DNA from: Bacteriovoracaceae bacterium
GTDB taxonomy: Bacteria > Bdellovibrionota > Bacteriovoracia > Bacteriovoracales > Bacteriovoracaceae
Direction: 5' to 3'
Assembly: GCA_041586955.1 (NCBI GenBank)
Contig: JBFGZE010000044.1
Location: forward strand, 1 to 25,504
DNA length: 25,504 bases
Shown piece after piece: positions 2,872 through 18,971 of the stretch (position 1 is its first letter; the number at the start of each line of letters is the position of its first letter). The position numbers and the translations under genes were made by a program. Below the pieces are notes generated by a model. The model searched no databases, had not been told where the DNA came from, and worked only from the letters and a program-made list of their open reading frames with translations.

Positions 2872-2874
2872 ATA

Positions 2875-3642: not shown

Positions 3643-3653
3643 TTGATTAAAGA

Positions 3654-3673
3654 GGAGTCCTTTGGAGGACTCC
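3654..3673 (+). promoter_or_regulatory. Hairpin overlapping the Shine-Dalgarno of the M23 peptidase gene
   Basis: Perfect 8-bp stem GGAGTCCT-ttgg-AGGACTCC. The GGAGG at 3664-3668 lies 6 nt before the TTG start at 3675. Confidence 0.55.
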
Positions 3674-3674
3674 C

Positions 3675-4313
3675 TTGAATAAAATATGTTTATTCATATT
3701 TTTTATCTTTTTGATGGGTTGTGGACACTTTCCTAGTGGACGCTATATCCAAGTCCAGCGCTCGGTTTCTTCAAAAGAACTTGGAAAGGTTTTGAATATT
3801 CCTTCTTGGCAAATAGAAAAATCAAATAAAAAAAATGAATTTAAAGAAGGTGATTGGGTCTATTTACCACATTCTAGCGGCATCCTAGGGCAAGCGGCAA
3901 AATCCTTAAGTATTGATGAGGTTTTGAGTAATCGGAGCTTTTTATGGCCTGTTCCTTCAAGCACAAAAATTACTAGTCGCTTTGGTAAGCGCTGGGGGAA
4001 AAAGCATGAAGGAATCGATATTGCTGGCCGAAGTGGTAGCCATATTGTTTCAACTATGGATGGAGTCGTCGTTTATTCTGGCAATAAGATGGGTGGGTAC
4101 GGGAATATTACCATTATTTCCCACGCCGGTGGCTATTTTAGTATTTACGCTCATGCGAAAAAGAATTTTACCAGACGTGGAGAACGTGTGGTGCGTGGCC
4201 AGGTCATTGCTCAAGTGGGCTCCACTGGCCGGTCTACTGGCCCCCATCTGCATTTTGAAATCCGTCGCAATTCCAGGCCCATTAATCCCAAAAAACTATT
4301 GTCTCTTAAATAA
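3675..4313 (+). CDS. NlpD-like lipoprotein, M23 family metallopeptidase with a degenerate LysM-like region
   Basis: Lipoprotein signal ending LMGC. M23 motifs FLWPV, HEGID, GYGN, YAH and TGRSTGPHLHFE. The surE-nlpD synteny is conserved. Confidence 0.9.
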   Translation: MNKICLFIFFIFLMGCGHFPSGRYIQVQRSVSSKELGKVLNIPSWQIEKSNKKNEFKEGDWVYLPHSSGILGQAAKSLSIDEVLSNRSFLWPVPSSTKITSRFGKRWGKKHEGIDIAGRSGSHIVSTMDGVVVYSGNKMGGYGNITIISHAGGYFSIYAHAKKNFTRRGERVVRGQVIAQVGSTGRSTGPHLHFEIRRNSRPINPKKLLSLK

Positions 4314-4886
4314 TTCTAAAATTTTGAGATACATTTTAGCGGTATTGAGTGCGTCTTCTAAGGCGGTATGACAAACATCGCCCATTTTTAAAAATTTCAT
4401 CAGGCCAGTTCCTGAGCTACACTCTTCAGGAATATAATTCATATCAATTAATTGATAGGCCACTGATGTTAAGTCTAATTGTCTGTGTTGAAAGTGGTTT
4501 CTCATGAATTCATGACCTAGGTCTCGTGATAGAAACGGCAGATCGATGGCACTTAGAGATTTTCCAAATAATGTAATTTGATTGTTTTTACCGAAGTAGT
4601 TGATAATTTTTTCTGATGTTAAATAGGCCGCCAGACCTTCCCGAAAGCTTTCTAGAGTAATTCCCTCAGCGTGAGATTTTTCAATGAGTTTTTTATTATG
4701 ATCTATGACCCAAGGATTAAGGTTGGGCCTCAATTCTTCAAAGCTTGGGCATTTTATATAATGGTGAAAAGTGAGTTTATCTTCAATTTTGCTTTCCTTT
4801 GAACAAAAAGGTACAGCAGCAAATTCAATGATTAAGTCTTCGGGCATAAGGCCTGTGGCCTCAATATCAATTGATAAATATTTCAA
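4296..4886 (-). CDS. DEDDh 3'-5' exonuclease (DnaQ/oligoribonuclease-like)
   Basis: ExoI SIDIEATG, ExoII IDLPFL and ExoIII HTALEDA motifs. The TTG start overlaps the upstream TGA. Confidence 0.85.
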   Translation of the reverse strand: MKYLSIDIEATGLMPEDLIIEFAAVPFCSKESKIEDKLTFHHYIKCPSFEELRPNLNPWVIDHNKKLIEKSHAEGITLESFREGLAAYLTSEKIINYFGKNNQITLFGKSLSAIDLPFLSRDLGHEFMRNHFQHRQLDLTSVAYQLIDMNYIPEECSSGTGLMKFLKMGDVCHTALEDALNTAKMYLKILELFKRQ

Positions 4887-5776
4887 GGGATAATCCTTTT
4901 TTCGAGCTTTATTTTTGTATTAATGGGGCAATGATCACTGACGTGGGTATAACTTGATCCTAACTGCATTTCATTAGAGGGAAAGCAAAAATTTTGTTGG
5001 CAATGAGCAAAAGTCTTTGATTGATAAGATAACGGGGAAAAATTATGAAAAAGAATATGATCTATTTTTGAGGGATAAAAAAGGCGATCATTGATACCTC
5101 CCCACCAATAACTACTACATTTAATAGTTTGGGTTGCATTGACTAGATTTATAAATTGATCATTGAGCTTAGAGAAGAACATTTCTTCAGTCATATTAAA
5201 GTCACCAAGAATAATATGAGGAAGATTATTATTTTTGGTGAGCCAGAGACTTAAATACTTTACTTGTTTTTCCCGTTTAACTTGGGCCTTGTCATCGCTA
5301 CCGGCCTTGAGATGTAGATTTATAATTTGGATAAGAGTTGAATTATAATTTTCTTTTAAAGTTAAGACGAGAGCAGGCCTAAGTCCATAGTGACAATTTT
5401 TTTGTAAGGACATTTCGCTAATTTCTTCTTTCTTTATGAATGAAAATAAGCGTTTGTCGTAAATGATTCCCAGGTATTGTTGACCAAGGCCACCGCAAGA
5501 TGAAGTTATTAATTCGTAAAAGGGAAATTTCTCAGTTAATTGCTTACGGAAGGTCTCTGGGGTTTTAAGTTCTTGGATAGCTAATAGATGAGATTGTTTT
5601 TTTTTAATGAAGGAGAATATTTTTTCTTTCTTGAGAGAGGTCGAAGGACCCCTTTTTGACCAAAAGTTTCTTAAGTTAAAGCTTGTGATATTAAATTCCT
5701 CTGATTTTGTTTCGCCAAATATATGGGTTGAAAAGCAGAGAGAGACAAATGAAATCAGTAAAAATAAGTTTTGCAT
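4883..5776 (-). CDS. Secreted endonuclease/exonuclease/phosphatase (EEP) family protein
   Basis: N-terminal hydrophobic signal. Motifs SFNL, AIQE, HLKAG, GDFN, IDHI and SDHCPI. Confidence 0.88.
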   Translation of the reverse strand: MQNLFLLISFVSLCFSTHIFGETKSEEFNITSFNLRNFWSKRGPSTSLKKEKIFSFIKKKQSHLLAIQELKTPETFRKQLTEKFPFYELITSSCGGLGQQYLGIIYDKRLFSFIKKEEISEMSLQKNCHYGLRPALVLTLKENYNSTLIQIINLHLKAGSDDKAQVKREKQVKYLSLWLTKNNNLPHIILGDFNMTEEMFFSKLNDQFINLVNATQTIKCSSYWWGGINDRLFYPSKIDHILFHNFSPLSYQSKTFAHCQQNFCFPSNEMQLGSSYTHVSDHCPINTKIKLEKRIIP

Positions 5777-5783
5777 TGTTGAT

Positions 5784-5813
5784 ATGATACCGAGGAGAGG
5801 AGAGGGTTGGCAA
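5784..5813 (-). promoter_or_regulatory. Putative sigma70 promoter of the EEP nuclease gene, probably giving a leaderless mRNA
   Basis: TTGCCA (5813-5808), 18-bp spacer, TATCAT (5789-5784). The ATG follows 7 nt later with no SD. Confidence 0.5.
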
Positions 5814-5818
5814 TGGCC

Positions 5819-6076
5819 CTAGAGGTAATCGATGGTAATAATAATATCCTGGGTAGGTGAACTTTGATTACTTAATTCGAATGGAGATATTTGGCAACTC
5901 ATAATATCCTGATTAACAACGCATTTTTGGCAATGACCTCTCCCAATGCAGCTACTGGCAATAGGAATATTGTGGCGCTGGAGAATGCCCATCAGGTTTT
6001 CGTGCTCATTTTCTTTAGGGATTGTTAGCTCCAAGATAACCTGAGAGGAGGCCAGCCCCTTGATGACTAATCGCAT
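5819..6076 (-). CDS. Small 2Fe-2S ferredoxin-like protein
   Basis: IPIASSCIGRGHCQKC...MSCQ gives C-x5-C-x2-C plus a distal Cys. Confidence 0.82.
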   Translation of the reverse strand: MRLVIKGLASSQVILELTIPKENEHENLMGILQRHNIPIASSCIGRGHCQKCVVNQDIMSCQISPFELSNQSSPTQDIIITIDYL

Positions 6077-7314
6077 AAAAGATGTGTTGGTTGTCTCTCA
6101 TCGATAACTAAGCTGGACTCCTTGTTTTTCCAAATTAGTCCCCATACTTCACCAATTTTTCTGGAATGATATGGGTTTAGTTTGGTGGAAAGAATACGAT
6201 CAACTTCTTGACTGGGGAGAGATTGTGACTCAAATATATAGCGGCTAGGATTAGTCGTTTTAATATGACGTGCCTGTTTCAATAACTTTATTAAGCTCAC
6301 TTTATCGTGGCCAATGACAGCTTCGTCCATCGTTAGCTGGTGAAGGATTTGGCCACTATCAGGACCACGTAATGAAAAAAGGGCCATTTGTGATGTTTCA
6401 TTTTTTTGATGGCAAAAGGACAAGGGAGTGAGAGCGTTTTTAGATATCAATGGGCCTTTTGGAGAGTTGACTTTGATAAAATCTGGGCCATTACTTGTAA
6501 CACCGACAAATATTTTGTTCTTAAAGATAAGAGAGAAAATATTAAAATTGGAATCCCATTCTTTTGAGTTTACAACAACTTGGTGATCGTAGAGGCCAAA
6601 ATCAAGGTTGCACTTAAGACCTTTTTTAGAAGTGGGGAAAAGGGGTGGGGCAAACTGCTTTGTGGATACGCCCGTTTGAAGATTATTTTTCATAAAGGGT
6701 AATAATTGAAATCGTTTGAAAGTTTCTCCAACGTTGAGTGGTTGTCCTGCCCGAAAAAATAGACCTTCGAGGGCCTTCTTTTTTTGAGTAAAGAATGGTG
6801 ATGACTGATTTTCTTGAAGAAAGTGCGATAGGTATTGATCAACCTTGATCCTGTCAGGTAAACGCCCCTCTATATGGCGCGTGAGTGAAAGCAGAGGGTT
6901 TACGCCACCTGCAAGGTGTTGGAGTCCGATTAAAAATGGCCATTTGATTGATTGGTTTTTTTCCATCAAATTATTAAAGTCATTGGCCTGAAATTTATCC
7001 TTATCTACAATGAGATAATAGAAGCGAGAACCTGGGGTGGTTGTCTCGGGCCTAAAATAAAGCTGGGTTAACGCCAATATTGCAGCGGCCTTTTTAAAGG
7101 AAATATTAGGATGACGTTTTAAATAATCCAATAAAAACGTATTCGCTTGTAGGGACTTGGAGCCTATACTAAGTGCTGTATTTGCTTCGCAGGAAACTTT
7201 AGCATTGGCGGGAACAATCTCAACGCTCTTTTGTTCTGAGTTAATAAGGTGAACAATGCTACTGCAGCTGACTGAAAGGGCAAATATAAAAGGAAGAACA
7301 AATTGAACTTTCAT
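6067..7314 (-). CDS. Hypothetical lipoprotein
   Basis: 415-aa ORF with signal MKVQFVLPFIFALSVSC. It overlaps both neighbours, and no domain was recognised. Confidence 0.7.
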   Translation of the reverse strand: MKVQFVLPFIFALSVSCSSIVHLINSEQKSVEIVPANAKVSCEANTALSIGSKSLQANTFLLDYLKRHPNISFKKAAAILALTQLYFRPETTTPGSRFYYLIVDKDKFQANDFNNLMEKNQSIKWPFLIGLQHLAGGVNPLLSLTRHIEGRLPDRIKVDQYLSHFLQENQSSPFFTQKKKALEGLFFRAGQPLNVGETFKRFQLLPFMKNNLQTGVSTKQFAPPLFPTSKKGLKCNLDFGLYDHQVVVNSKEWDSNFNIFSLIFKNKIFVGVTSNGPDFIKVNSPKGPLISKNALTPLSFCHQKNETSQMALFSLRGPDSGQILHQLTMDEAVIGHDKVSLIKLLKQARHIKTTNPSRYIFESQSLPSQEVDRILSTKLNPYHSRKIGEVWGLIWKNKESSLVIDERQPTHLLCD

Positions 7315-7670
7315 AGATCGTTTGAGATCTCTAATTGGGGACCTCGCTCTTCATAGTGGAGGGCCTGTTCAGTGTGGCCAAAGCTTTCAGGAAAATTATC
7401 AAGGTTTAATTCTTGAGCTTTTAGATTTAATGCCTTTAAAGTGAATAAAACCCACATACCCGACCCCGATTCTCCTGTATGTGATTGAGTTTGAACATTA
7501 AGGATCTCAAAACCTTGATTAACAAAATGATAGAAGATTTTATCAAATTCTTTTTCTCTATAGCCGGTTTTTCTACGAGGTGGCGCCGGAATATAATAGG
7601 TAAATGTCTGAATTTTAAAAGAATCTCTTCCCAGTATAAAATTATAGGCCCTTTTAAAATGTTTAAACAT
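7311..7670 (-). CDS. Hypothetical protein
   Basis: 119-aa ORF with an AAGGA SD. Its stop overlaps the next start (ATGA). Confidence 0.7.
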   Translation of the reverse strand: MFKHFKRAYNFILGRDSFKIQTFTYYIPAPPRRKTGYREKEFDKIFYHFVNQGFEILNVQTQSHTGESGSGMWVLFTLKALNLKAQELNLDNFPESFGHTEQALHYEERGPQLEISNDL

Positions 7671-7703
7671 ATTCTATTTCCTTGAGGATTTATTGGGGAC
7701 TTT

Positions 7704-7732
7704 ATTTTCTCCCGACCCTAAAGAAACGTCAA
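7704..7732 (-). promoter_or_regulatory. Putative sigma70 promoter for the leftward gene block
   Basis: TTGACG (7732-7727), 17-bp spacer, GAAAAT (7709-7704). Confidence 0.45.
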
Positions 7733-7758
7733 ATGATCAGCGATAAAATTTTCTTGGG

Positions 7759-7780
7759 AAAGATTTGCCCAAAAATCTTT
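7759..7780. promoter_or_regulatory. Palindromic putative transcription-factor site
   Basis: Perfect 8-bp inverted repeat AAAGATTT-gcccaa-AAATCTTT between divergent promoters. Confidence 0.45.
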
Positions 7781-7806
7781 TTTCTTTTTTGCATAAAAAT
7801 ATAGGT

Positions 7807-7812
7807 TATAAT
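7807..7812 (+). promoter_or_regulatory. -10 box of the candidate sRNA
   Basis: Perfect TATAAT with no plus-strand gene downstream and no canonical -35 at 16-18 bp. Confidence 0.55.
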
Positions 7813-7816
7813 AAGA

Positions 7817-7895
7817 TTGTGGATGACAGGAAGTTATTCATAAGTAGGCAGGAAGCCAAAAGAGAGGGGCCTTTGCAGGGGGCCCCTTTTTTTTT
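7817..7895 (+). ncRNA. Candidate CsrA/RsmA-binding small RNA (Csr/Rsm-like)
   Basis: Hairpin 1 is TTGTGGATGAC-AGGAA-GTTATTCATAA (11 bp with G-U pairs). Hairpin 2 is GGC-AGGAA-GCC. An intrinsic terminator follows, and TATAAT precedes the unit. Confidence 0.65.
7858..7895 (+). terminator. Rho-independent terminator, possibly also serving the convergent scoB operon
   Basis: AGGGGCCTTT-GCA-GGGGGCCCCT followed by a T run to 7895. The G-U pairs favour the plus strand; the minus strand gives a weaker stem with a CTCTCTTTT tail. Confidence 0.8.
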
Positions 7896-7953
7896 GTTCG
7901 AGAGTCCAATTTAAATTTCATTAAACTCAAAGCAAATTTTCAATCGTTATCAT

Positions 7954-8565
7954 CTATAAGGGCAACTTTAAGTCTTGCTCTACAACCCCTGGTGCCAGTT
8001 TAATAACATCAAAGGTTTTACCATTGGGAGTAAAAAGGCCTTTGTCTGTGACAACTTTATGAACAACACTCAAACCTGTGAGAGGTAGTTCGCATAATTT
8101 TTTAAGTTTGCTTTCTCCTGCTTTATTAAAATGAGTCATCATGATAATCACTTCTTTGGCCCCGTTGACCAAATCCATTGCACCACCCATACCAGTTACT
8201 TTTTTTCCAGGAATCATCCAATTGGCGAGGTTACCTTTAGTATCCACTTCCATTCCGCCCAGGACACAGAAGTCTAAATGCCCGCCACGAATCATGCCAA
8301 AGCTGAGGGCGCTATCAAAGAAGCTAGCACCTTTGGCAATGGATATTGTTTCCTTTCCGGCATTGATAAGTGTAGGGGAGACTTCATCTTTTGCAGGTCT
8401 TCCCTCGACCCCTAGTACACCATTTTCAGAGTGTATAATAATATCTAATGTTTTGGGGATTCTTTCTGCGATAATCGTTGGTAGACCAATCCCTAAATTA
8501 ACAGAGCAGCTATTGGAAAAAAGGGAGATGACTTCATCGGCCATTTGGTTTTTATTCCAACTCAT
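7954..8565 (-). CDS. scoB: 3-oxoacid CoA-transferase subunit B
   Basis: Motifs VNLGIGLPT, SENG (catalytic Glu), IRGGHLD, GNLANW and GMGGAMDL. Confidence 0.93.
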   Translation of the reverse strand: MSWNKNQMADEVISLFSNSCSVNLGIGLPTIIAERIPKTLDIIIHSENGVLGVEGRPAKDEVSPTLINAGKETISIAKGASFFDSALSFGMIRGGHLDFCVLGGMEVDTKGNLANWMIPGKKVTGMGGAMDLVNGAKEVIIMMTHFNKAGESKLKKLCELPLTGLSVVHKVVTDKGLFTPNGKTFDVIKLAPGVVEQDLKLPL

Positions 8566-9260
8566 TATTGATCCTTCGTTACGAGGTATTCGATTTCGTT
8601 TTTATAGTTTTGACCTTGAAAGATTCTTTGGACAAAAATGCCCGGCAGGTGGACATCTTCGGCCGGTATTTCCCCAAGTTCGACCAATTCTTCGACCTCA
8701 ACGATGGTGACTTTTGCGGCCATGGCCATGAGAGGAGAGAAGTTACGAGCGGTTTCTTTAAACCATAGATTGCCAAAGGTGTCGCTTTTTTGGGCCTTAA
8801 TAATCGCAAAGTCTGCATGAAGCGCCTCCTCCAAAATGCAAGGGCGATCAAAGGTTTTGACCTCCTTGCCCTCGGCGATCAAGGTTCCAACTCCTGTTGG
8901 GGTATAGAAAGCGCGGATACCAAGTCCCGCGGCACGGATACGCTCTGAAAAGGTTCCCTGGGGGATCAATTCTACTTCCACTTCACCGCGAAGCATTTGT
9001 TCTTCTAGATCAGGGTTTCCCCCGACATAACTACAATAGGCCTTTGATATTTGATGATTTTTAAGTAACTTAACTAGGCCACGACCGGAGTTTCCTATAT
9101 TATTAGAAATAATGGCAAGCTCTGTGAGATCTTTCCGCTGCGCTAGAGCATCGATACAATTTTCAGCAATGCCGCAAAGTCCGAAACCTCCACTCATCAA
9201 GGTTTGACCACTTTTAATATCAAATATGGCCGACTGAGCGTCTTTAAAAATTTTTGTCAT
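8565..9260 (-). CDS. scoA: 3-oxoacid CoA-transferase subunit A
   Basis: Motifs GGFGLCG, ISNN, SYVG, PQGTFSERIRAAG, FYTPTGVGT and VHLPGIFV. Confidence 0.93.
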   Translation of the reverse strand: MTKIFKDAQSAIFDIKSGQTLMSGGFGLCGIAENCIDALAQRKDLTELAIISNNIGNSGRGLVKLLKNHQISKAYCSYVGGNPDLEEQMLRGEVEVELIPQGTFSERIRAAGLGIRAFYTPTGVGTLIAEGKEVKTFDRPCILEEALHADFAIIKAQKSDTFGNLWFKETARNFSPLMAMAAKVTIVEVEELVELGEIPAEDVHLPGIFVQRIFQGQNYKNEIEYLVTKDQ

Positions 9261-10444
9261 GATTTCCTTCCTTGAATGATGTCGCTTATGATTTTCATAC
9301 CACGCTGAAGATCATTGAAAGGCATATTTAAGGCCGGTGCGACGATGAGGTTTTTGGGAGCAGTAATCATATAGAGCCCGTGCTTTAAGAATGTGCTCCA
9401 TTCGACATCAATAGTTAAGGCAATATTGGCAATCATGCCAATGTTTCTAATACTGCTAACCTGGGGCAATTGTTCTAAAAGTTTTAGATGGCCGGTAAAT
9501 TGACTGATCAATTGATTAAGATGAGGTAAAAATTCTTGCTGGTTGATTAAATTTTGTGTCCCAATTCCTGCGGCCAAAGTCAAGGGGTGCCCATAATTTG
9601 TAAGTCCGGCCGGAAGTATATGTTTATCAAAAAAATCTGCAATAGAAGGAGTCGTCCAAACGGCGCCGAGAGGGGCCATCCCGCCACTTAGCGCCTTGGC
9701 CAAGCAAATAAAATCGGGTTTTAAAAATGGGTAATGATGAAAACCAAAGGCCTTGCCGGTACGATAAAGTCCACAGACGACCTCGTCGAGAATGAGAAAT
9801 ATATTAAACTCATCACAGAGATCCTGGATCCCTTTATACCACATCTGAGATGGAATGATGACACCATTTCCGCCGGTAATTGTTTCCAAACAAATCGCAG
9901 CGATATTTTCTGGCCCATGATCGAGAATTATTTGGCGGGTTTGACTGAGAGTCGGATCATTTTCTGGCTCCGGAATGCGAACCGTCCACTCATCAACTGT
10001 GCTAATCGCCTGATTGCGCCAATCCCCACTAATACTAATCGCGCCAAGGGTAGCACCATGATAGGAGTTTTTTCGCGCTAAAACTTTATTTTTTCCTTTA
10101 ATGAAGCGTGCCATCTTAAGCGCATTTTCAATGGATTCTGCACCTGAAAGTGTGAAGAAAATTTTCCCAGGCCTTTCAATTTTATCTATTAGAGAGTTGG
10201 CGAGACTCTCTTTTTCGGTAAAAATGGCCTTCGGTGATGCCGCCAAAAAGCGGTCAGTTTGTTCTTTGATGCGGTCAATAATGATTTGTGGGGAGAGTCC
10301 AAAGGATAGGTGATAACTGGTGGAGACCATATCCAAAATTGCCTGGTCATCTTCTGTTATATAATGAAATGCATCGACCCCTTTAATTTTAAAGCAATTT
10401 GCCATACTTTGATTTTGCCAAGTTAAGTAAAAGGGGGAGCTCAT
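9257..10444 (-). CDS. Class III PLP-dependent omega-aminotransferase (beta-alanine/taurine transaminase-like)
   Basis: Motifs FFTLSGAESIENALK, SYHGATLGAISISGD, ILDEVVCG, LAKALSGG (PLP Lys) and GLTNYGHP. Confidence 0.9.
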   Translation of the reverse strand: MSSPFYLTWQNQSMANCFKIKGVDAFHYITEDDQAILDMVSTSYHLSFGLSPQIIIDRIKEQTDRFLAASPKAIFTEKESLANSLIDKIERPGKIFFTLSGAESIENALKMARFIKGKNKVLARKNSYHGATLGAISISGDWRNQAISTVDEWTVRIPEPENDPTLSQTRQIILDHGPENIAAICLETITGGNGVIIPSQMWYKGIQDLCDEFNIFLILDEVVCGLYRTGKAFGFHHYPFLKPDFICLAKALSGGMAPLGAVWTTPSIADFFDKHILPAGLTNYGHPLTLAAGIGTQNLINQQEFLPHLNQLISQFTGHLKLLEQLPQVSSIRNIGMIANIALTIDVEWSTFLKHGLYMITAPKNLIVAPALNMPFNDLQRGMKIISDIIQGRKS

Positions 10445-11557
10445 TTATTCCTTCCTACGAAAAGTTTTTTTTCCAGCGTTGTCACTAATGGTAAAATGAT
10501 ATTCTTTATAATTGTCGTCATAAGTTGGGCAGCCTCGCCAAAAAGAGGAGATCCCATCGCTTAAGTTTGCAATGCCACCCCCACAAGTTGTTGAAGGGTC
10601 TTGGGCACCAGATTCATAATGTGAACAAAGGCTCATTGGATAGTTATCGTGGTTTTGGAATAAGTTCTTAAGGTCAGAAAGGGTTCGCACTTGATTTGCT
10701 TTTTCTGTTAATAATTCAAATCTTTTATGAGTTGTTGAGCTGATGGAGTCTTTCATTTCCATAGTTTGAATCACGTCACCTAGGCAATGATTGGTGTGAA
10801 AAGCGTAAGGTTTGTCAGCACTAGTTTGGCCAACACATTCAGAATGGTTTGGAGTGACTTCCCAGTGCTCTCCAATAGATGGGTCAGAGACGATATAATT
10901 ATGGCCGCTCGTTACTGGAGAGTTTTTGAGCATATCGTCCATTTCTCTGACAGATTGTTTTTCGAGTAGTGCACGAACAAAGACTGGCCAAATGATCCCC
11001 GCTTTGGCGTTCTGAGTATTAATATTATTAACGCCGACTAGGCAATTGTTGGTGTTGATCCCCATTAAGGCCGGACAACCTACCAATGATAAACAAAGAA
11101 GTTCGGAGCTTTTATTTGTCTCTGGGACACGAATAAGACAAAGAAAATCTTTTGCTGATTGGTGCATATCCCATGTTTGACCTGACAATTCACCTTCCGG
11201 CGTGCGAATATGCATGGTGGAGCACCCTTCCTCGGGCAACTCAATATCTCTAAAGTCTGTGTAGTTATTGAGAATGACTATCTCTTCTAAAGAAAGATTC
11301 GCACCTTGGCGGATACCTTCTAATTCGTCACACCAATGAGGCGCAAAATCTTTAGTCACGTCCCATTGGGCCTGGGCCAAGGGCGCCAGGTGATTTTTTA
11401 AAAGAGGGTTTTTGTTTAACATAAGCTCTTGTCGAATATTCGCTAACTCTCTTATGCTCTCGCGAAAGGCCTCGCCGTGGGCCAGACCCCACTCAAGAAA
11501 TGTGTCACCATATTTGTATTCTATAAAAGGGAAACCTTGGTCCATGTTTTTATCCAT
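10445..11557 (-). CDS. Peptidase C45 autoproteolytic Ntn acyltransferase/hydrolase (isopenicillin-N acyltransferase/Tan family)
   Basis: N-terminal WGLAHGE, autocleavage site G111-C112 (EEG/CST), GQTWD and HTNH. Confidence 0.88.
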   Translation of the reverse strand: MDKNMDQGFPFIEYKYGDTFLEWGLAHGEAFRESIRELANIRQELMLNKNPLLKNHLAPLAQAQWDVTKDFAPHWCDELEGIRQGANLSLEEIVILNNYTDFRDIELPEEGCSTMHIRTPEGELSGQTWDMHQSAKDFLCLIRVPETNKSSELLCLSLVGCPALMGINTNNCLVGVNNINTQNAKAGIIWPVFVRALLEKQSVREMDDMLKNSPVTSGHNYIVSDPSIGEHWEVTPNHSECVGQTSADKPYAFHTNHCLGDVIQTMEMKDSISSTTHKRFELLTEKANQVRTLSDLKNLFQNHDNYPMSLCSHYESGAQDPSTTCGGGIANLSDGISSFWRGCPTYDDNYKEYHFTISDNAGKKTFRRKE

Positions 11558-14500
11558 TTGTTATCATTTTGGAAAATTGTTGCATTTGAGCTAATGAAGG
11601 GCATACAAAGTAGGTTTGCCCCTCTTTTTTAAAGTACGGTTGATAATGAAGTGGGCAATTTCCTGTAAATTGTCCTTTCCCCCGGTGGAGGAAAATATCG
11701 CTTATACCGAACTCTGTGAGTTTAAGGCGTAAGTCTTTTTCAAATGTATCAATGATACGATTCATTTTCTCGTGATTTTGGTGCCAGCGGTCACAGTATT
11801 GATGATAGAGTGCCATGGCCAACTCATCTCCATCCCAAGTAGAGATCATCATGAGTGGTTTTTCAAGAAAGAGATGATCTTCGATAAAGACCAATGCCCC
11901 TTGACCTCCTAGCCAGAAAAAGCCTCCGTCTGGTGTAATTTCCGGATCGCTTGCAGCGAGGAAAGTGTCTTGGTGATAATGGTAAGCTTTAGAAGCCGTT
12001 TCATTATAGAGTAGAGGTGTCTCATATTTTGTGGCCAACCCTCTTAAACCTTTTAAGAATTCTTTGGGGACAGGTTTAAGAATGTTTTGAGGTAAGGGCT
12101 CAATCCAGATTGCTAAATATTGTTCCTTTTTGAGTTGATCTTCTACACTTTTTAGAACTTGTTGAAAGTTTTCAGTGGTAGGGGTTTCCATTTGGTCGAC
12201 GTCAAAGTAACCAGGTTCCTTATCACAGGTATTTCCTAGCGAGCGACTTAAGAAAGAACCATTACCAAAATGATGACCTTTAAACGTTAAATGCTTGGCC
12301 GATTTTTTCTGCTTAAACCAAATTGTTTTCGCCAATTTATCAACACATTCTGATTGTCCACTGGCGGTAAAACCATGGCGGAGTGACTCTGGTAATAAAT
12401 TGAAAATAGACTCAACGTGAGTTAGGAATTTTTCAGACACAAAATTAGATAAGCAAACTTTATTGTTAATTATTGGCATTAACTCTTTTATTTGTTCTGC
12501 CGTCATTTGTTCCATTCGATGATGAGAATGATGGCCATTCGATAGGTTAATTGATTCTTCTTGCCATTGGGTCTTAATTTCATAAAAGAGAACATCGCGA
12601 TGTTCCTCAAAGTCTGGGTAGTCCTCGGGCATATAGAATAATTCGGTAGCACCTAAAGATTGGTTGATGGCGAGCATACTACCAGCAAGGCGATCTCTGT
12701 TGCGTCCTGTTATTTTTTGAATACCTTTGGAAATGGCAATGGCGATGAGGGCAGATTTAATTTTGCCGCCCATTGAGCGACCTTGGAAATCTGGCCGAAC
12801 AGTCGCATCGAGCATGTAGAGCGCCTTGGGGTTATTAAAATCTGGATCTCGTCTGATACCTCTTTCCAGAGGAGTTAAGGACATTGGTCCGGCAAAGGTC
12901 ATTGCCTTGATAATTCCTTTTTGGCAAAAAGCGAGGGCAATTCCATTTTGGTTCTTGGCCACAGCTTCAAATTTTTCAATGTTGGTTTGTCTGGTCACTT
13001 CATAGACTTGCTCTTGGATTTCTTGAATTTGGCCTTTGAATTGAGAAAAGTTTTGCCCATCTATGACGACTAATTCAATTTCTTCATCTGTGACGAGAAG
13101 ACCGTTAATATGGGCGATGACTTGATCCATTTGAGGCAAATTACCTTGTAATGACTTAAGTTTTAGCTCTGTTAGGTATTCATGCCATTGGTAAAGTGAT
13201 TGAGCACTTTTATTTTTAGTGGCCGCCATTTGTGGTCGCGTACCTTCTACTTGATTAAAGATTTCATTACACAAGGTATCGAGTTGCTCGAATAGGAACT
13301 GGAGGTCTTCTGTTTTGTACGCCGTATTGAGCCTAAAGCGCAGAGTATGTGATCCTGCAGGATAATAAAGAAGTCCAAACTCAAAACGTTTAGCAATAAA
13401 TGTTGGGATAAAATCCTTATTTTTAAAATCAAAGGCAAAGGCCATTCCTTGAAGGCGTGGGCATTCGATATGATCACTATATTTGGTAATTAATTGGTCG
13501 AGCTGTTGTCTGGTTTCATTTTCCAATTGATGGATCTGTTTTTGCATTTGATCGAGGGCCAGCCCATGAGAGAGCCCCCTGATAAGAGAGGCCACCTGAA
13601 ATTCCATTTCTCCTAGGGGAATCGCCGTAGAGCGATGGGGAGATAAAACCATACCGACTTGCGCCTTTTTGGCACAGGTGACGTAATCGGGAAGAAGTGG
13701 TTTGCCAAATTGGTCTTGAAGATTAAAGGCCTTATGCCAAAAAAACTCACGGCCTAAATGAAAACCAGTTTGGACTTCATCATAAATAAGGGGGATATTA
13801 TGGGTGCGTGCCATAATTAAAAGGGCGGTGTGAAAGCGATTGGTACTATAGCGATCTCCACCTTCACATTGCATTGGCTCGATAATTATTGAAAAGACCT
13901 CTTTACTGTCTATGATTGATTTAACCTTTAATAGTGAGTCGATTTCTTTTTCGATTTGAGGGTCTTGTAATAATTTTTTATTAAAGGCCGACTTGGTAAT
14001 AGCGGGGTTTTCCCAATTTTGATGCCAGTCTTGCGGAATTGTGTGAGTGATTTCATCGCCTTTGTACTCGGGGTAGGGCGCGAAGATCGCCTCATGACCT
14101 TCCCAGGCAAAAGGTTCTCTCTTACTTGGGTTCCATGTGGCCTGAAGAGACATCAGCATTCTGCCGTGGAAGGAACCTTCAAAAGCAAGAATTTTTTTCG
14201 CTTCAGGGTAAACTCTTGAGCTATAGCATAGGCCGAGAGCTGTTTCATTGGCCTCCGCACCTGAGTTTGTATAGCGCGAGTAGACTCTCTCCCAATTAAG
14301 TTTTCTTTTGAGAAAAGATTGGCACCCCTTATGGACCTTTAAAATGTTTTTTGAATTAGGGTTATTGGTATAGGATTCCTGAAAATGGGCCGGGGCCATT
14401 AATGGCATGGCGTTAAAGCCTAATCCTAATGTGGCGATCTGACTAGCAGCATCCATCATATAATGGGTCATGCCATTTGGAGCTTGAATGGCCATATAAG

Positions 14501-14633
14501 GGCCAATGGAATTTTTCAAATCAGTGAGATAGGCCTTCTTTTCAGCAGGTATCATATCATTGGCGTAATGTTTGGCCAATATTTCCTTGGCGTAGTTTTC
14601 GCTTTCTTGATTGATGAGTGGTAAATTTTCCAT
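11550..14633 (-). CDS. Three-domain fusion: Lat/GABA-AT-like class III aminotransferase + GNAT acetyltransferase + catalytically degenerate second aminotransferase domain
   Basis: Residues 1-460 carry SGAEANE, SFHGR, EPMQCEGGD, DEVQTG, AKKAQVG and TLRFR. Residues ~515-690 carry GNAT motif A TVRPDFQGRSMG. Residues ~695-1027 carry SGQSECVDK, IWIEP, NETAS and ISTWDG. Confidence 0.85.
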   Translation of the reverse strand: MENLPLINQESENYAKEILAKHYANDMIPAEKKAYLTDLKNSIGPYMAIQAPNGMTHYMMDAASQIATLGLGFNAMPLMAPAHFQESYTNNPNSKNILKVHKGCQSFLKRKLNWERVYSRYTNSGAEANETALGLCYSSRVYPEAKKILAFEGSFHGRMLMSLQATWNPSKREPFAWEGHEAIFAPYPEYKGDEITHTIPQDWHQNWENPAITKSAFNKKLLQDPQIEKEIDSLLKVKSIIDSKEVFSIIIEPMQCEGGDRYSTNRFHTALLIMARTHNIPLIYDEVQTGFHLGREFFWHKAFNLQDQFGKPLLPDYVTCAKKAQVGMVLSPHRSTAIPLGEMEFQVASLIRGLSHGLALDQMQKQIHQLENETRQQLDQLITKYSDHIECPRLQGMAFAFDFKNKDFIPTFIAKRFEFGLLYYPAGSHTLRFRLNTAYKTEDLQFLFEQLDTLCNEIFNQVEGTRPQMAATKNKSAQSLYQWHEYLTELKLKSLQGNLPQMDQVIAHINGLLVTDEEIELVVIDGQNFSQFKGQIQEIQEQVYEVTRQTNIEKFEAVAKNQNGIALAFCQKGIIKAMTFAGPMSLTPLERGIRRDPDFNNPKALYMLDATVRPDFQGRSMGGKIKSALIAIAISKGIQKITGRNRDRLAGSMLAINQSLGATELFYMPEDYPDFEEHRDVLFYEIKTQWQEESINLSNGHHSHHRMEQMTAEQIKELMPIINNKVCLSNFVSEKFLTHVESIFNLLPESLRHGFTASGQSECVDKLAKTIWFKQKKSAKHLTFKGHHFGNGSFLSRSLGNTCDKEPGYFDVDQMETPTTENFQQVLKSVEDQLKKEQYLAIWIEPLPQNILKPVPKEFLKGLRGLATKYETPLLYNETASKAYHYHQDTFLAASDPEITPDGGFFWLGGQGALVFIEDHLFLEKPLMMISTWDGDELAMALYHQYCDRWHQNHEKMNRIIDTFEKDLRLKLTEFGISDIFLHRGKGQFTGNCPLHYQPYFKKEGQTYFVCPSLAQMQQFSKMITNG

Positions 14634-14641
14634 AAGGGCCT

Positions 14642-15640
14642 CTATGATGGAGAAAGGGTTAGGTTTATTTTTTCTTCTAGAAATTGTTGATAAGAATGAC
14701 CATGGTTCTCTAATAAAGTTGGAAACATGGAGATTGGGGTATGACCAGGAAAGGTATTGATCTCATTAATATAGAATTGCCCATCTGTGGTCAGAAAAAA
14801 ATCGATTCTTGCTAGGTCTTTGAGCTTAAGTCCTTTAAAGGCCTTGATGGAATTGATCTGAAGTGCCTCAATAATTTCAGGAGTTAAATTCGGTGCTGGA
14901 CAAAGCGTCTTAGTATGACTTTGCTTACTGTATTTTTCTTCATAGGTGTAAAAACCTTTAGGGCAAATAACTTCACCTGGTTGGGTCGCGATGACTTTAT
15001 TTTCAAATTCATAGGTCGCGATTTCCAATTCTCGACCTATAATGGTTTTTTCTAATAGGACGTAGGGTGATAAGGCCAATGCTTTTCTCAGCGCCGGTAC
15101 TAGTTCATCGGCATCCGTCACATGGTAACAACCAATAGAAGAGCCCTGGCTTGATGCTTTAACAAAAATATCACCATACTCCTTAAAGAAAGTGCTTGCC
15201 TTGTCGATTTCATCAGAGTCTAAATTATTGATAAAACAAAATGGCGAATTGGGAATATCCAATTGGGTCAACCATAACTTTGTAGAGATTTTATTAAAAC
15301 AAAGAGTACTTGCTTCCGGACCACTACCAAGATAGGGAAGACTCATTAACTCAAAGACACTCTGGATATGACCTGTCTCCCCTGGTGGGCCATGAAAGCA
15401 CGGTATGGCAAAGTCGAGGTGGTACTGACCTTCATTGGTTGTAAGCGTTTTATCTTTTCTAAGCTCGACCTCAAGACCTCTAGCATCAACACGAGTTCCG
15501 TCTGGTTTTATTTCTACCCAATGGCACCGGGTATTAGGGATTGCATCCAATTTTTCTTGGAGGAAGCGGGCAGAAATTAATGAAATGTCGTGCTCGCTAC
15601 CACCGCCTCCACACATGAGGAGGATATTTTTGTCTGTCAT
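14642..15640 (-). CDS. ddl: D-alanine--D-alanine ligase
   Basis: Motifs GGGGSEHDISL, HGPPGETG, KASSQGSSIG, FYTYEEKY, RIDFF and NEINTFPG. ATG 15640 has an AAGGA SD. Confidence 0.95.
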   Translation of the reverse strand: MTDKNILLMCGGGGSEHDISLISARFLQEKLDAIPNTRCHWVEIKPDGTRVDARGLEVELRKDKTLTTNEGQYHLDFAIPCFHGPPGETGHIQSVFELMSLPYLGSGPEASTLCFNKISTKLWLTQLDIPNSPFCFINNLDSDEIDKASTFFKEYGDIFVKASSQGSSIGCYHVTDADELVPALRKALALSPYVLLEKTIIGRELEIATYEFENKVIATQPGEVICPKGFYTYEEKYSKQSHTKTLCPAPNLTPEIIEALQINSIKAFKGLKLKDLARIDFFLTTDGQFYINEINTFPGHTPISMFPTLLENHGHSYQQFLEEKINLTLSPS

Positions 15641-15661
15641 GAGCAATCCTTTGTCCTTTAG

Positions 15662-17410
15662 TTAGCGAAGGGCATCCGGCATTTTTTGGGCGCTGAGCTC
15701 ATCAAACTTAGCGTTAAGTTCCTCAATCGATAAAGACTCCGAACTTCTCTCTCCATAGGCCCGAATACTAACTGTTTTTTCTTCCATTTCACGATCCCCT
15801 ATAACTAGCATAAAGGGAACTTTTGCTTTTTGAATTTGACGAGTCTTATAGCCCATCGTTTCGTTGCGATCATCGACTCGAATACGGAAGCCTTTTGACA
15901 TCCACTTTTGGCAAAGGTCATTGGCGTATTCTAAGTGCTGTTCATTATTAACAGGGACAATGACTGCTTGTTCTGGAGCTAACCAAAATGGAAAGGCACC
16001 TGCAATATGTTCTAAGTAAACGCCAAAAAAGCGTTCTAATGACCCTAATAAGGCGCGATGGATTACAACGGGACGCTCGTCATTTCCTTCAGCATTCGTA
16101 TATTTAAGGTCAAAACGTTCAGGCAGCTGAAAGTCTAATTGTATTGTTCCCAATTGGTAGTAACGCCCTAAAGCATCAGAAATTTCTACATCTATTTTTG
16201 GCCCATAGAAAGCACCATCACCTTCTTTAATCGCATAGTCATGACCACTTTTTTCCAGTGCCGACCTTAAAGCGTTTTCGGCCTTGTCCCATGTTGCATC
16301 GTCACCGGCCTTTTTTTCTGGGCGAGTGGATAGATTGACCTTTATATTTGGGAATTTAAAATGGTTATAGCAAACGAAAAACATTTCCATTAGGTTAACG
16401 ATTTCTTTTTCTATTCCATCGATGTCGATAAATATATGGGCGTCATCTTGGCAAAAGGTGCGCACGCGAGTGAGTCCTCCCAGGGCCCCAGCTTTTTCGT
16501 AGCGGTGAAGGCGACCAAAATCGGCATAACGAAGAGGGAGGTCTCTATAGCTGTATTTATAATGTTTAAACATCAGCATATGGCAGGGGCAGTTCATTGG
16601 TTTTACTGCATATTCACGCTCATCGATATTAGAAAAGTACATATTCTCTTTGTAGTGAGCGTAATGACCGCTTGTATGCCATAGGTCTGAATCAAGAATT
16701 TGGGGAGTAATGACTTCATCGTATCCAAAACGGTGATAAATTCTTCTCATGAAGTCGACCAATTCATTATAAACTGTTGCACCCTTAGGCATAAAAAACG
16801 GAGAGCCAGGTGCAACTGTTTCGAAATGAAATAACTCCAATTCTTTACCTAGTTTACGATGGTCTCTTTTCTTTGCCTCTTGAAGGAATGTTAGATAATC
16901 CTTTAATTCGTTGCGGTCAGCAAAGGAAGCAGCGTAAATCCTTTGAAGCATTTGGTTATTGGAATCCCCACGCCAATAGGCACCTGCAGTGTGGAGCAAT
17001 TTAAAACTCATAGGTAATTGAGAGGTGTTTTCAACATGAGGTCCACGGCATAGATCAATAAAATCACCCTGTTTATAGCACGTGATTTCATCACCTTCGG
17101 GAATCGCTTCAATCAATTCTACCTTGAGGGTTTGGCCTTTATCTTGAAAAAAACGAATGGCCTCATCCCGTTGCATGACAATTCTCTCAACCGGGATTTT
17201 CTCTTTGATAATTGCTTTCATTAACTTTTCGATTTTTTTAAGGTCTTCATCTGTTAGGCGATGATCCATATCAATATCATAGTAAAAGCCATTATCAATG
17301 ACAGGGCCAACTCCAAATTGAACATGACTATCTGGCCATAATCGTTCAATTGCTTGGGCCATGAGGTGCGCACTTGTGTGTCTAATGGTATCAATATCGA
17401 ATTTTGGCAT
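15662..17410 (-). CDS. thrS: Threonine--tRNA ligase, short form without N-terminal TGS domain
   Basis: Motifs RHTSAHL, DLCRGPH, RDHRKLG, KPMNCP, GAFYGPKID and IHRALLGSLERF. ATG 17410 follows a GGAG SD. Confidence 0.97.
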   Translation of the reverse strand: MPKFDIDTIRHTSAHLMAQAIERLWPDSHVQFGVGPVIDNGFYYDIDMDHRLTDEDLKKIEKLMKAIIKEKIPVERIVMQRDEAIRFFQDKGQTLKVELIEAIPEGDEITCYKQGDFIDLCRGPHVENTSQLPMSFKLLHTAGAYWRGDSNNQMLQRIYAASFADRNELKDYLTFLQEAKKRDHRKLGKELELFHFETVAPGSPFFMPKGATVYNELVDFMRRIYHRFGYDEVITPQILDSDLWHTSGHYAHYKENMYFSNIDEREYAVKPMNCPCHMLMFKHYKYSYRDLPLRYADFGRLHRYEKAGALGGLTRVRTFCQDDAHIFIDIDGIEKEIVNLMEMFFVCYNHFKFPNIKVNLSTRPEKKAGDDATWDKAENALRSALEKSGHDYAIKEGDGAFYGPKIDVEISDALGRYYQLGTIQLDFQLPERFDLKYTNAEGNDERPVVIHRALLGSLERFFGVYLEHIAGAFPFWLAPEQAVIVPVNNEQHLEYANDLCQKWMSKGFRIRVDDRNETMGYKTRQIQKAKVPFMLVIGDREMEEKTVSIRAYGERSSESLSIEELNAKFDELSAQKMPDALR

Positions 17411-17524
17411 ACTTAGGGCTCCATCAAAGAAAAAAATCACCTATTTTGGCAAAGTAACATATCAATGGAGTCCTTATAAATCAATGAGTTAAAATGACCT
17501 TTTTACATAGAAATCAGAAGGTTT

Positions 17525-17554
17525 TTGACGTTTAGCTTAGCCCCATGATATGAC
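17525..17554 (+). promoter_or_regulatory. Putative sigma70 promoter of the TPR regulator
   Basis: TTGACG (17525-17530), 18-bp spacer, TG-a-TATGAC (extended -10-like). Confidence 0.35.
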
Positions 17555-17601
17555 AATATTGCCTACCGGCATAAGGAAGAGGGGAACACTAGGGAGTGGA
17601 T

Positions 17602-18879
17602 ATGACCCAGATTCAAGGGCATGAAGAATTAAGAAACTCGGTTCATTTAGGAAGCGCTTTAGGTGTTATTCCAGAGGGAGATCATCTTCTCGGTGAATCA
17701 CTTGAAATCAGTTCGTATGAATTAGGGAAATCTCATTATCAATTGGGCAAAATTTATTACGATAAATCTGACCTAGGAAAAGCTGAAACTCATTTTATTA
17801 AGGCCCTCAGTTTCACAGAGGAACCTCGCGATTATTATTCAAAATTTAAAATTTTAGGTTTTCTTATTCGTATCGCCTCTGAGCAATTGGATGACCATAA
17901 GGCGGGCCTGTATATTCAGGATGCTGATAATATTGTTGAAAAAATGAGTACGGCCTTAGGCACTCTTAACGCTGAATATTTTTATAATGTTGGCATCGTG
18001 AATAATTATAAAGGGGATTTTGATCAAGCTAGAATCCAGTTCGAATTAGCGCATAAAAAGTCACGTGAAGAAAATGAGCCTGAGCTATTGTCCAAATGTC
18101 TTCTTTCTTTGGCCGTCAATTGCTTTAATAGAAGAGAATTTGAAAAGTCCTTAGCGTATTTAGAGCAACTAGGGGAGCTTTTAACTATTATTAAAAAGAA
18201 TTATTTATCGGGCGCCCGCTTTTTATTTGCCGCAAAAGTATATAATGAAATGGATGACTCTAAAAAAGCTCTCGACTTTTATCGCTTGGCCAACCAAACC
18301 CTTCAGGGGAAAAAATGCTGGAATTTATACGGTTATATTTTACTTGGTAAAGGTGTTGTTTTTAAGAGAAATGGTCAGTACGACCAGGCCTTAACTTTTT
18401 TTGAGTTAGCAAAAGAGTCGACTGATGCCCGTGTTTTTAAACGCTTATCTCAGTTAATTGATTCTGAGATTCAAGATGTGAATGATAGTAGTGTTGATAT
18501 ATATTTAGACCGTGTTAATCGTAAGATTAAAGAGCGTACTCTTGGAACAATAGATTTTAAGCACCGCTTTATTCTCTTGGAAATTTTATTTTTATTGGCC
18601 AAAAATGCTGGCTCTTATTTTGATAAAGAGCAACTGGCGAAATGTATTTGGAAAGATGAATACAACCCTCTAATTCATGACAAATTGATTTATACTTCTG
18701 TTAGTCGCCTTCGGAAATTAATTGAACCTAAAAATGATTCAGGGGTCAAAAGGAAGTATATTGTCCGTGGAAAAGACGGCTATACATTTAACCCCATGGT
18801 TAAAATTCGCTTTCAGCAAGAGACAAAACCCCAGACTCAGGGTGCTATTGGTAATATCGAGCTTGGTTCACCTGTTTAA
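17602..18879 (+). CDS. TPR-repeat protein with C-terminal OmpR/PhoB-type winged-helix DNA-binding domain
   Basis: TPR-like helices (YQLGKIYY...AETHFIKAL; YNVGIVNNYKGDFDQA; LGKGVVFKRNGQYDQAL). The C-terminus reads KEQLAKCIW...IYTSVSRLRKLIE...YIVRGKDGYTF. ATG 17602 follows GGAG. Confidence 0.85.
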   Translation: MTQIQGHEELRNSVHLGSALGVIPEGDHLLGESLEISSYELGKSHYQLGKIYYDKSDLGKAETHFIKALSFTEEPRDYYSKFKILGFLIRIASEQLDDHKAGLYIQDADNIVEKMSTALGTLNAEYFYNVGIVNNYKGDFDQARIQFELAHKKSREENEPELLSKCLLSLAVNCFNRREFEKSLAYLEQLGELLTIIKKNYLSGARFLFAAKVYNEMDDSKKALDFYRLANQTLQGKKCWNLYGYILLGKGVVFKRNGQYDQALTFFELAKESTDARVFKRLSQLIDSEIQDVNDSSVDIYLDRVNRKIKERTLGTIDFKHRFILLEILFLLAKNAGSYFDKEQLAKCIWKDEYNPLIHDKLIYTSVSRLRKLIEPKNDSGVKRKYIVRGKDGYTFNPMVKIRFQQETKPQTQGAIGNIELGSPV

Positions 18880-18916: not shown

Positions 18917-18946
18917 TTGAATAGTAGGCTTGATTACCCCTATAAT
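18917..18946 (+). promoter_or_regulatory. Putative sigma70 promoter
   Basis: TTGAAT (18917-18922), 18-bp spacer, TATAAT (18941-18946). Confidence 0.6.
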
Positions 18947-18971
18947 GATGGTAGGCCACAGTGGGGATTTT

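Follow-up and report, generated by a model that had tools for sequence, protein, structure and literature searches.

Which compound is handled by five genes that abut or overlap on the minus strand of a 25,504-nucleotide stretch of a Bacteriovoracaceae genome (contig JBFGZE010000044.1; hereafter the window), and is that compound broken down or built up? A preliminary description of this DNA had read the genes as encoding acylation, transamination, deacylation, a second transamination and transfer to coenzyme A (CoA), and that logic fits the gene set that we found. We consider it probable that the five genes are the core of a pathway that breaks down lysine via beta-lysine, with one of the two amines protected by an N-acyl group. 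The more specific proposal that the acyl group sits on N6, in the manner of Pseudomonas sp. B4, is held tentatively, at somewhat below an even chance, and our confidence in the reading taken as a whole is evenly balanced. We infer every chemical step, as well as the substrate, the acyl donor, the regiochemistry and the role of a degenerate domain in the first enzyme.

The open reading frame (ORF) listing of the window gave limits for the five minus-strand genes that match the preliminary description exactly, and the coordinates, junctions and Pfam or NCBIfam matches bear out its account of five abutting or overlapping genes of named families. The first gene (positions 11550-14633) is an ORF of 1027 amino acids (aa) whose product joins an aminotransferase, a GNAT domain and a pseudo-aminotransferase; the second (10445-11557; 370 aa; NF040521, PF03417) encodes an autoproteolytic N-terminal nucleophile (Ntn) amidase/acyltransferase of the C45 family; and the third (9257-10444; 395 aa; PF00202) encodes a second class III aminotransferase, of the omega-transaminase type, hereafter AT2. 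The fourth (8565-9260; 231 aa; TIGR02429) and fifth (7954-8565; 203 aa; TIGR02428) belong to the scoA/pcaI and scoB/pcaJ families and encode subunits A and B, respectively, of a 3-oxoacid CoA-transferase. The fusion and C45 genes overlap by 8 nucleotides (nt), the C45 and AT2 genes abut exactly, AT2 and scoA overlap by 4 nt, and scoA and scoB overlap by 1 nt.

The first gene had been described as a fusion of an aminotransferase with a GNAT domain; both domains are present, but the protein is not a two-domain one, since it ends in a third domain that is a degenerate paralog of the first. A full-length AlphaFold model, derived from 51 sequences, had a predicted local distance difference test score (pLDDT) of 91.6 and a predicted template modeling score (pTM) of 0.92. 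The first domain (residues 1-465; positions 13239-14633, minus strand) is an intact class III, pyridoxal phosphate (PLP)-dependent aminotransferase, to which PF00202 matched at residues 58-451 with 126.9 bits against a gathering score of 30.5. It has the motifs DEVQTG (285-290) and CAKKAQ (320-325), the latter containing Lys322. The PLP residues are kept, with Asp285, Gln288 and Lys322 invariant across the 51 fusion sequences; we take them to be the Schiff-base lysine and the aspartate and glutamine of the DExQxG motif of class III aminotransferases. When residues 13-460 were aligned to known structures with VIA-align, the Z scores were 35.0 for the lysine aminotransferase (Lat) of M. tuberculosis, 34.9 for acetylornithine aminotransferase, 34.0 for succinylornithine aminotransferase and 33.7 for gamma-aminobutyrate (GABA) aminotransferase, a ranking that consists of ties, and the fold matched many class III structures at Z 33-35, with root-mean-square deviations of 2.5-3.1 over 360-415 residues at an identity of about 20%. 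The label of Lat-type enzyme given earlier holds to the extent that Lat had the highest score, but it does not set Lat apart from the acetylornithine and GABA enzymes.

The middle of the fusion protein (residues 466-705; positions 12519-13238, minus strand) comprises linker helices and a GNAT acyltransferase domain. Folded alone, this region had a pLDDT of 85.4, and a Foldseek search with the domain returned at least 500 Protein Data Bank (PDB) matches at E <= 0.001, the best being RimI (5isv; E 2e-9, TMt 0.82); at the level of the predicted structure, a GNAT fold is confirmed. A loop of sequence QGRSMGG at 617-623, in which Gly622 is invariant, meets the pattern Q/R-x-x-G-x-G/A that we take to be the CoA-binding loop motif of GNAT enzymes. 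Sequence comparison supported the assignment weakly (RimI on about 608-705, E 0.0094; a second search, E 0.041), the GNAT region of the window protein matched neither PF00583 nor any NCBIfam model, and 4 of 119 listed fusion homologs have a precomputed PF00583 match.

The last domain (residues 701-1027; positions 11553-12533, minus strand) was recognized from profile comparison, residues 452-1027 having no Pfam match at E <= 10. The profile of the last 327 residues aligned to that of the first 465 in hhalign with a probability of 96.7% (E 3.8e-10), and in phmmer acetylornithine aminotransferase 2ord matched about residues 756-879 (E 0.0012). In the hhalign columns Asp285 is paired with Asn877, Gln288 with Ala880 and Lys322 with Leu908; since the lysine and the aspartate are replaced, we regard the domain as a pseudo-enzyme. 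A stretch within it, STWDGDE at 931-937, is conserved in invariant columns. The C-terminal domain probably replaces the second subunit of the usual aminotransferase dimer, the sole pointer to a fixed arrangement of the two aminotransferase-like halves being the pTM of the full-length prediction. Homologs of the fusion numbered 538 at E <= 0.001; the best 120 were 994-1041 aa long with 45-49% identity, and those among them that carry names are from Halobacteriovorax, Bacteriovorax and relatives.

The C45 protein matched C45_proenzyme (NF040521) with 149.1 bits (cut-off 85) and PF03417 with 55.6 bits (cut-off 23.2), and it aligned to acyl-CoA:isopenicillin N acyltransferase (2x1d; E 9.8e-22, 80.6 bits) such that Gly111-Cys112 falls on the Gly-Cys pair of that enzyme and is the predicted self-processing site. 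AT2 matched PF00202 with 193.5 bits and keeps Lys250; its best NCBIfam matches, PRK06062, BioA and AptA, were each below cut-off, and its best PDB match was taurine:2-oxoglutarate aminotransferase (6jix, 185.6 bits). ScoA and ScoB passed their models (TIGR02429, 240.8 bits against a cut-off of 128.5; TIGR02428, 253.6 bits against 243.55). Judged from their sequences, the first domain of the fusion, the C45 protein and AT2 look intact and functional.

Full-length orthologs of the fusion occur in the genome of the window (G000, 88% complete) and in 12 of 24 same-family genomes, among 41 related genomes examined, and 3 of 16 genomes from other families have a more distant form, about 1090 aa long. 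The arrangement ddl-fusion-C45-AT2-scoA-scoB, in which ddl encodes D-alanine--D-alanine ligase, is preserved at 10 of 11 same-family loci. Of 301 genomes sampled across the phylum, 62 have the fusion; they include 41 of 67 from the family of the window and 15 of 20 from another family. Scanning a single genome for each species gave 373 relatives, and neighborhoods were counted for the best 80 of the 373, which were grouped by record title and arrangement into 69 Bacteriovoracia-type loci and 11 others (Pirellulales-type, Planctomycetia, Fibrobacteria and unnamed). Each gene was counted only in loci with enough flank. In the Bacteriovoracia-type and the other loci, respectively, C45 was present in 59/61 and 9/9, AT2 in 54/56 and 7/8, scoA in 53/55 and 8/8, and scoB in 49/50 and 5/6. 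The linkage is far beyond chance: the block recurs in those 10 same-family loci and in most of the 80 loci from other species, and the gene-neighborhood check that had been proposed for the operon came out as co-conservation. Two records titled Sulfitobacter sp. (L069) and Epsilonproteobacteria (L124) have the full Bacteriovoracia-type arrangement, with the thrS upstream 70-78% identical, and were counted in that group; they are probably mis-binned or mislabelled.

The loci outside the Bacteriovoracia type contain further genes, their order being fusion-C45-AT2-scoA-KamA-scoB-thiolase. A long form of KamA, the family of radical-SAM 2,3-aminomutases, lies between scoA and scoB in 6 of 7 of them (0 of 53 Bacteriovoracia-type loci), is 66-69% identical to a long KamA of G000, and is accompanied by a thiolase gene in 4 of 6 loci (0 of 49 of the Bacteriovoracia type). 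Among the several substrates listed in the preliminary description, beta-lysine is the one to which the evidence points: a KamA-family gene lies inside the Planctomycetota-type and Fibrobacteria clusters and co-occurs with the operon in the family of the window. The distant form of the fusion has a C45 partner at 16 of 17 loci; its neighbors include two CoA-transferase genes that form a non-orthologous pair at 7 of the 17, and an omega-aminotransferase together with a thiolase at 6. Neither a dehydrogenase nor KamA, KamD or BKACE was found next to it at these 17 loci, where part of the gene labels came from BLAST against sequences already classified in this analysis. The recurring set is thus the fusion, C45, a second aminotransferase, a CoA transferase and a thiolase, with an aminomutase linked in some phyla.

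Several single loci carry features of their own. At one of them (L148, in G111:C2) the genome carries an additional copy of the distant-type fusion that has no C45 next to it. In another, from G027 (L033:5157-6215), a gene of the arginase/agmatinase family lies on the opposite strand about 1.9 kb upstream of the distant-type fusion; its product is below all model cut-offs, and the gene may point to a guanidino compound as the substrate of this lineage. Planctomycetota-type clusters are flanked in one case by a downstream lysyl-phosphatidylglycerol synthase gene (MprF-like; L131:19809-22385) and in another by an upstream saccharopine-dehydrogenase-like gene (L136:25-1005), both of which may be coincidence.

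The long KamA of G000 (439 aa) is encoded on contig C18 at 21109-22425. It passes the KamA-family model TIGR00238 (254.1 bits, cut-off 199.2), its best NCBIfam match is the lysine 2,3-aminomutase model TIGR03820 (287.7 bits), and it aligns to the lysine 2,3-aminomutase of C. subterminale (2a5h) with E 1.1e-69 and with Asp at chain positions 293 and 330. We take Asp293 and Asp330 of 2a5h to bind the epsilon-ammonium group of lysine, and on these matches the protein looks like a lysine enzyme. Its orthologs (66-78% identity) are present in 13 of 25 family genomes, and 11 of the 13 have the operon. Two genomes, G008 (66% complete) and G014 (87% complete), have the long KamA and BKACE without the fusion and C45, and in G014 the cluster reads KamD-KamE-(HemL-like aminotransferase)-BKACE. 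The sole KamA-family gene of G014 is the long KamA; because KamDE needs beta-lysine and no other KamA-family gene is there, the long KamA probably makes beta-lysine in that genome.

The same alternative route is seen in G018 and G024, both of which have KamD, KamE and BKACE, together with Kdd in G018 and a HemL-like aminotransferase in G024. BKACE was found in 6 of the 41 relatives, none of which has the fusion, and a search for PF05853, the BKACE family, in G000 and in 12 further family genomes with the operon gave no match. Sister genomes, then, carry either the operon or a KamDE/BKACE cluster, which makes them a natural example of alternative solutions to one metabolic problem. A tblastn search of the 88% complete G000 at E <= 1e-5 detected no KamD, KamE, Kdd or BKACE, and for that reason the operon is the only candidate consumer of beta-lysine in that genome apart from the modification of elongation factor P (EF-P). 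The phyletic pattern among kin overstates independence, however, and the cross-phylum linkage of KamA is the stronger evidence.

We propose that a KamA-family radical-SAM 2,3-aminomutase would convert L-lysine to beta-lysine, N6 of which would be acylated by the GNAT domain of the fusion. The intact aminotransferase domain of the same chain would then turn the 3-amino group into a ketone, giving 3-oxo-6-acetamidohexanoate, whose CoA thioester would be formed by ScoAB and cleaved by a thiolase encoded elsewhere to acetyl-CoA and 4-acetamidobutyryl-CoA. C45 would strip off the acetyl group, and perhaps CoA too, to leave 4-aminobutyrate, which AT2 would convert to succinate semialdehyde, the final oxidation to succinate falling to an aldehyde dehydrogenase encoded elsewhere. 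The purpose of the acylation would be that, after loss of the other amine, the product cannot close into a ring. In favor of protection at N6, the conserved genes would suffice to lead from beta-lysine as far as succinate semialdehyde with no dedicated dehydrogenase among them, and, among the places scanned, a dehydrogenase was found beside the fusion only in one locus. By analogy, a biochemical precedent exists in Pseudomonas B4, and one member of the C45 family takes acyl-CoA as a substrate; the nearest solved relative of AT2, as judged by sequence, uses a short omega-amino acid, taurine.

A number of observations weigh against this proposal. In G000 the KamA, thiolase and dehydrogenase genes are unlinked to the operon, and there is no clear ortholog of the operon-linked thiolases, which are 29-40% identical to four paralogs there. 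The score of the long KamA on the lysine 2,3-aminomutase model is below the cut-off of 525.4, and the models for the glutamate and arginine 2,3-aminomutases match the protein too (219 and 193 bits, respectively). In one genome (G021) the operon coexists with a KamA of the canonical kind (355 bits on TIGR00238) in place of the long one, and another (G012) has ddl-fusion and C45 at separate places and no long KamA. The family genomes are kin, which inflates the phyletic pattern, and the holders of the operon may be one clade. The fold of the fused aminotransferase is nearest to enzymes that act on terminal amines, whereas protection at N6 needs action on the 3-amino group, although these fold matches are ties at about 20% identity; the sole linked dehydrogenase is AstD-like, and the gene order differs from the order of the proposed steps.

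The preliminary description had remarked on the lack of an aldehyde dehydrogenase and a keto-acid cleavage enzyme in the window. Such partners exist in part: besides the linked thiolase, an aldehyde dehydrogenase gene ends 14 nt upstream of the fusion in one non-Bacteriovoracia locus (L123), but no BKACE accompanies the operon. The L123 enzyme is nearest AstD, succinylglutamate-semialdehyde dehydrogenase (459.9 bits), and scored 225 on the succinate-semialdehyde dehydrogenase model. No linked dehydrogenase was found in the window, in the 17 distant-type loci or in the C45 locus of G012 (L159), nor was there one among the Pfam-scanned flanking ORFs of five non-Bacteriovoracia loci other than L123; the 80 other-species loci and 14 loci of the family-level comparison lay outside the dehydrogenase scan. 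G000 has an AstD-like dehydrogenase (C8:5669-7249) that occurs in 37 of the 41 relatives, irrespective of the operon, and in many genomes the gene lies 2-4 kb from that of a class III aminotransferase weakly matching the fusion (G003, G009, G013, G019 and G021 are examples); a separate pathway, either for ornithine or similar to the arginine succinyltransferase (AST) pathway, and common to these predators, is suggested. A generic dehydrogenase of G000 (C11) has 44-51% identical orthologs that, within the family, are found only in 8 operon carriers, and enzymes of this type at 41-43% identity are also found in other families without the operon. The other dehydrogenases of G000 are a methylmalonate-semialdehyde dehydrogenase, PaaZ and one within a 1391-aa open frame on C2.

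These enzymes bear on a different order of reactions, which we hold to be possible and on balance doubtful. In it the GNAT domain would acylate N3 of beta-lysine, the fused aminotransferase would convert the N6 amine to the aldehyde 3-acylamino-6-oxohexanoate, an AstD-like dehydrogenase would yield 3-acylaminoadipate, C45 would release 3-aminoadipate, AT2, acting as an omega/beta-type transaminase, would form 3-oxoadipate, and ScoAB with a thiolase would deliver acetyl-CoA and succinyl-CoA, in a route resembling the AST pathway. The general evidence for beta-lysine applies to it equally, and the fold ranking points its way, the three highest Z scores, ties as they are, belonging to enzymes that act on terminal amines and whose substrates are N-acylated compounds or lysine. 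So do the better match of the L123 dehydrogenase to AstD, the membership of ScoAB in the pcaI/pcaJ family, and a gene order (fusion-C45-AT2-scoAB-thiolase) that parallels the order of steps. AT2 and AT467, the unrelated aminotransferase of the distant clusters, are both in the omega-transaminase group, which presumably accepts beta-amino acids. Against these points stand the mid-pathway dehydrogenase that it requires, linked in scanned loci only in L123, and the presence of the AstD-like enzyme of G000 in nearly all relatives regardless of the operon. Known lysine and ornithine routes with cyclic aldimines usually proceed without protection, and the operon-linked thiolases are not of the PcaF type (263 bits against a cut-off of 605). 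The route is also without biochemical precedent, no paper on a 3-aminoadipate route having been found in the literature search. Were it true, a wholly undescribed lysine pathway would feed into the final two reactions of the beta-ketoadipate pathway, and the aminotransferase that runs it would be a 'heterodimer' within one chain, one of its sites dead and an acyltransferase built in.

It is improbable, in our view, that the linkage to KamA is incidental and that the substrate is instead ornithine, diaminopimelate from the cell wall of prey, putrescine or cadaverine, or alpha-lysine handled as N-acetyl-lysine. Predators free diaminopimelate from prey, the DapD/DapC/DapE and ArgA-E pathways likewise rely on acyl-protected transamination, the fusion in the window is preceded at a distance of 8 nt by ddl, and none of 53 Bacteriovoracia-type loci has a linked KamA. 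Yet the adjacency of ddl and thrS is confined to Bacteriovoracia (0/9 and 0/6 in other lineages), the ddl of the window is the best-scoring one in its genome and is probably a housekeeping gene, and such substrates leave unexplained both the position of KamA between scoA and scoB elsewhere and the call for a 3-oxoacid CoA transferase with a thiolase. Polyamines and beta-alanyl amides, which had also been listed as candidates, account for neither the aminomutase nor the thiolase. Less probable still is biosynthesis, raised earlier as an alternative, whether of the osmolyte N-acetyl-beta-lysine, as by AblA/AblB, or of another small molecule. An aminomutase together with a GNAT does recall the AblA/AblB pair of methanogens, and many carriers are marine according to their record titles, but others, by the same titles, belong to freshwater and groundwater lineages. 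The long KamA is below the AblA cut-off, the GNAT region has no NCBIfam acetyltransferase match, and here the GNAT shares its chain with an intact aminotransferase and is accompanied by an amidase and a CoA transferase, in many cases by a thiolase as well, which is the pattern of a breakdown pathway.

Beta-lysine breakdown with acyl protection can be set beside several known systems. In Pseudomonas sp. B4 the catabolism of beta-lysine was reportedly worked out at the enzyme level in the Barker laboratory in about 1979-1981, and is said to involve an acetyl-protected amine, two transaminases, an acetyl-CoA-dependent cleavage of 3-keto-6-acetamidohexanoate that releases acetoacetate, removal of the acetyl group from a 4-acetamidobutyryl compound by a deacetylase, and passage through 4-aminobutyrate. 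Enzymes for the protection, the two transaminations and the deacetylation could come from the conserved genes here, with C45 and AT2 as candidates by position. An acetyl-CoA-dependent cleavage enzyme of the BKACE type, by contrast, was not found, a CoA transferase and a thiolase being linked instead, so the release of acetoacetate that had been named for the B4 route is not implied here; the route would also differ in being fed from lysine by a linked or co-occurring aminomutase. A literature search, with most subscription journals outside it, found no gene assignment for the B4 enzymes or for EC 2.6.1.65 or 3.5.1.51, and no paper on this gene cluster. If the proposal is right, several activities of a B4-type route for which only enzymes were described gain candidate genes, and relative to that known type of pathway the genes, the solution to cleavage and the three-domain enzyme would be new.

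Lysine fermentation (KamA, KamDE, Kdd, Kce/BKACE, and Kal or Kat) likewise starts with lysine 2,3-aminomutase and ends with CoA-transferase and thiolase chemistry. It differs in that KamDE, Kdd and Kce were not found in G000, with sister genomes having that cluster in the place of the operon, and in that it uses no acyl protection. A variant of this route, described by Perret et al. (2011; PMC3149608), uses a HemL-like aminotransferase with KamDE/BKACE. The AST pathway (AstA-E) has in common with the operon the logic of acylation, class III transamination, oxidation and deacylation, a succinylornithine aminotransferase whose fold is among the near matches to the fusion, and an AstD to which the L123 dehydrogenase is nearest; here, however, a GNAT stands in place of AstA and C45 in place of AstE, and an aminomutase, a CoA transferase and a thiolase are added. 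Overall, the proposed route would operate in the manner of the B4 pathway while lacking one of that pathway's defining enzymes, and would have just its first step in common with lysine fermentation and just its logic in common with AST. With the founding C45 member, acyl-CoA:isopenicillin N acyltransferase, the C45 protein shares its family and the Gly-Cys self-processing site, although the match is modest and the setting here is bacterial and catabolic.

If beta-lysine is indeed the substrate, the operon would reveal the means by which many predatory members of Bacteriovoracia exploit lysine, which the digestion of prey protein releases in abundance, and carriers of the fusion are also found among some Planctomycetota and Fibrobacteria. 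The fusion protein, with a live and a dead aminotransferase paralog and an acyltransferase between them, would be a clear case for studying substrate hand-over and pseudo-enzyme partners.

Upstream of the fusion and on the same strand are ddl (positions 14642-15646; NF002527, 336.2 bits, cut-off 310) and, 15 nt further upstream, thrS for threonine--tRNA ligase (15662-17440; TIGR00418, 707 bits), the first gene of the same-strand run. These seven genes, from thrS to scoB, may form a transcription unit. Consensus scans of 7200-17900 gave promoter-like sites (21 against 23.7 expected) and terminator-like sites (11 against 10.6) at the level of chance. In the survey of 80 loci, those of the Bacteriovoracia type had ddl ahead of the fusion in 62 of 65 cases and thrS in 53 of 63. 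The ddl gene is probably a lineage-specific housekeeping neighbor, and a tie between the operon and ddl or cell-wall metabolism was considered and rejected, as the window ddl is the best in the genome and the adjacency is confined to one lineage. Two weaker Ddl-like genes lie elsewhere in G000: one on C39 (L045:5090-7129, minus strand) encodes a protein of 679 aa with two tandem Ddl-like halves, and the other on C18 (L044:6460-7470) encodes a protein of 336 aa with 138 bits on the Ddl subfamily model.

Gene annotation of the window covers 4296-18879. Divergent from thrS is a plus-strand gene (17596-18879) for a 427-aa protein with tetratricopeptide (TPR) repeats and a C-terminal OmpR/PhoB-type DNA-binding domain, which keeps its position in nearly all Bacteriovoracia-type loci. 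Downstream of scoB (4296-7670, minus strand) are ORFs of 119, 415 and 85 aa without a Pfam match and, beyond them, genes for an EEP-family nuclease/phosphatase-like protein and then an RNase T-like exonuclease. Of the 11 same-family loci, 6 have the 119-aa, 415-aa and exonuclease genes at the corresponding position, 3 have the EEP gene there and 1 has the 85-aa ORF. Further ORFs lie in 1-4295 and 18930-25504, among them one of 944 aa at 22080-24914.

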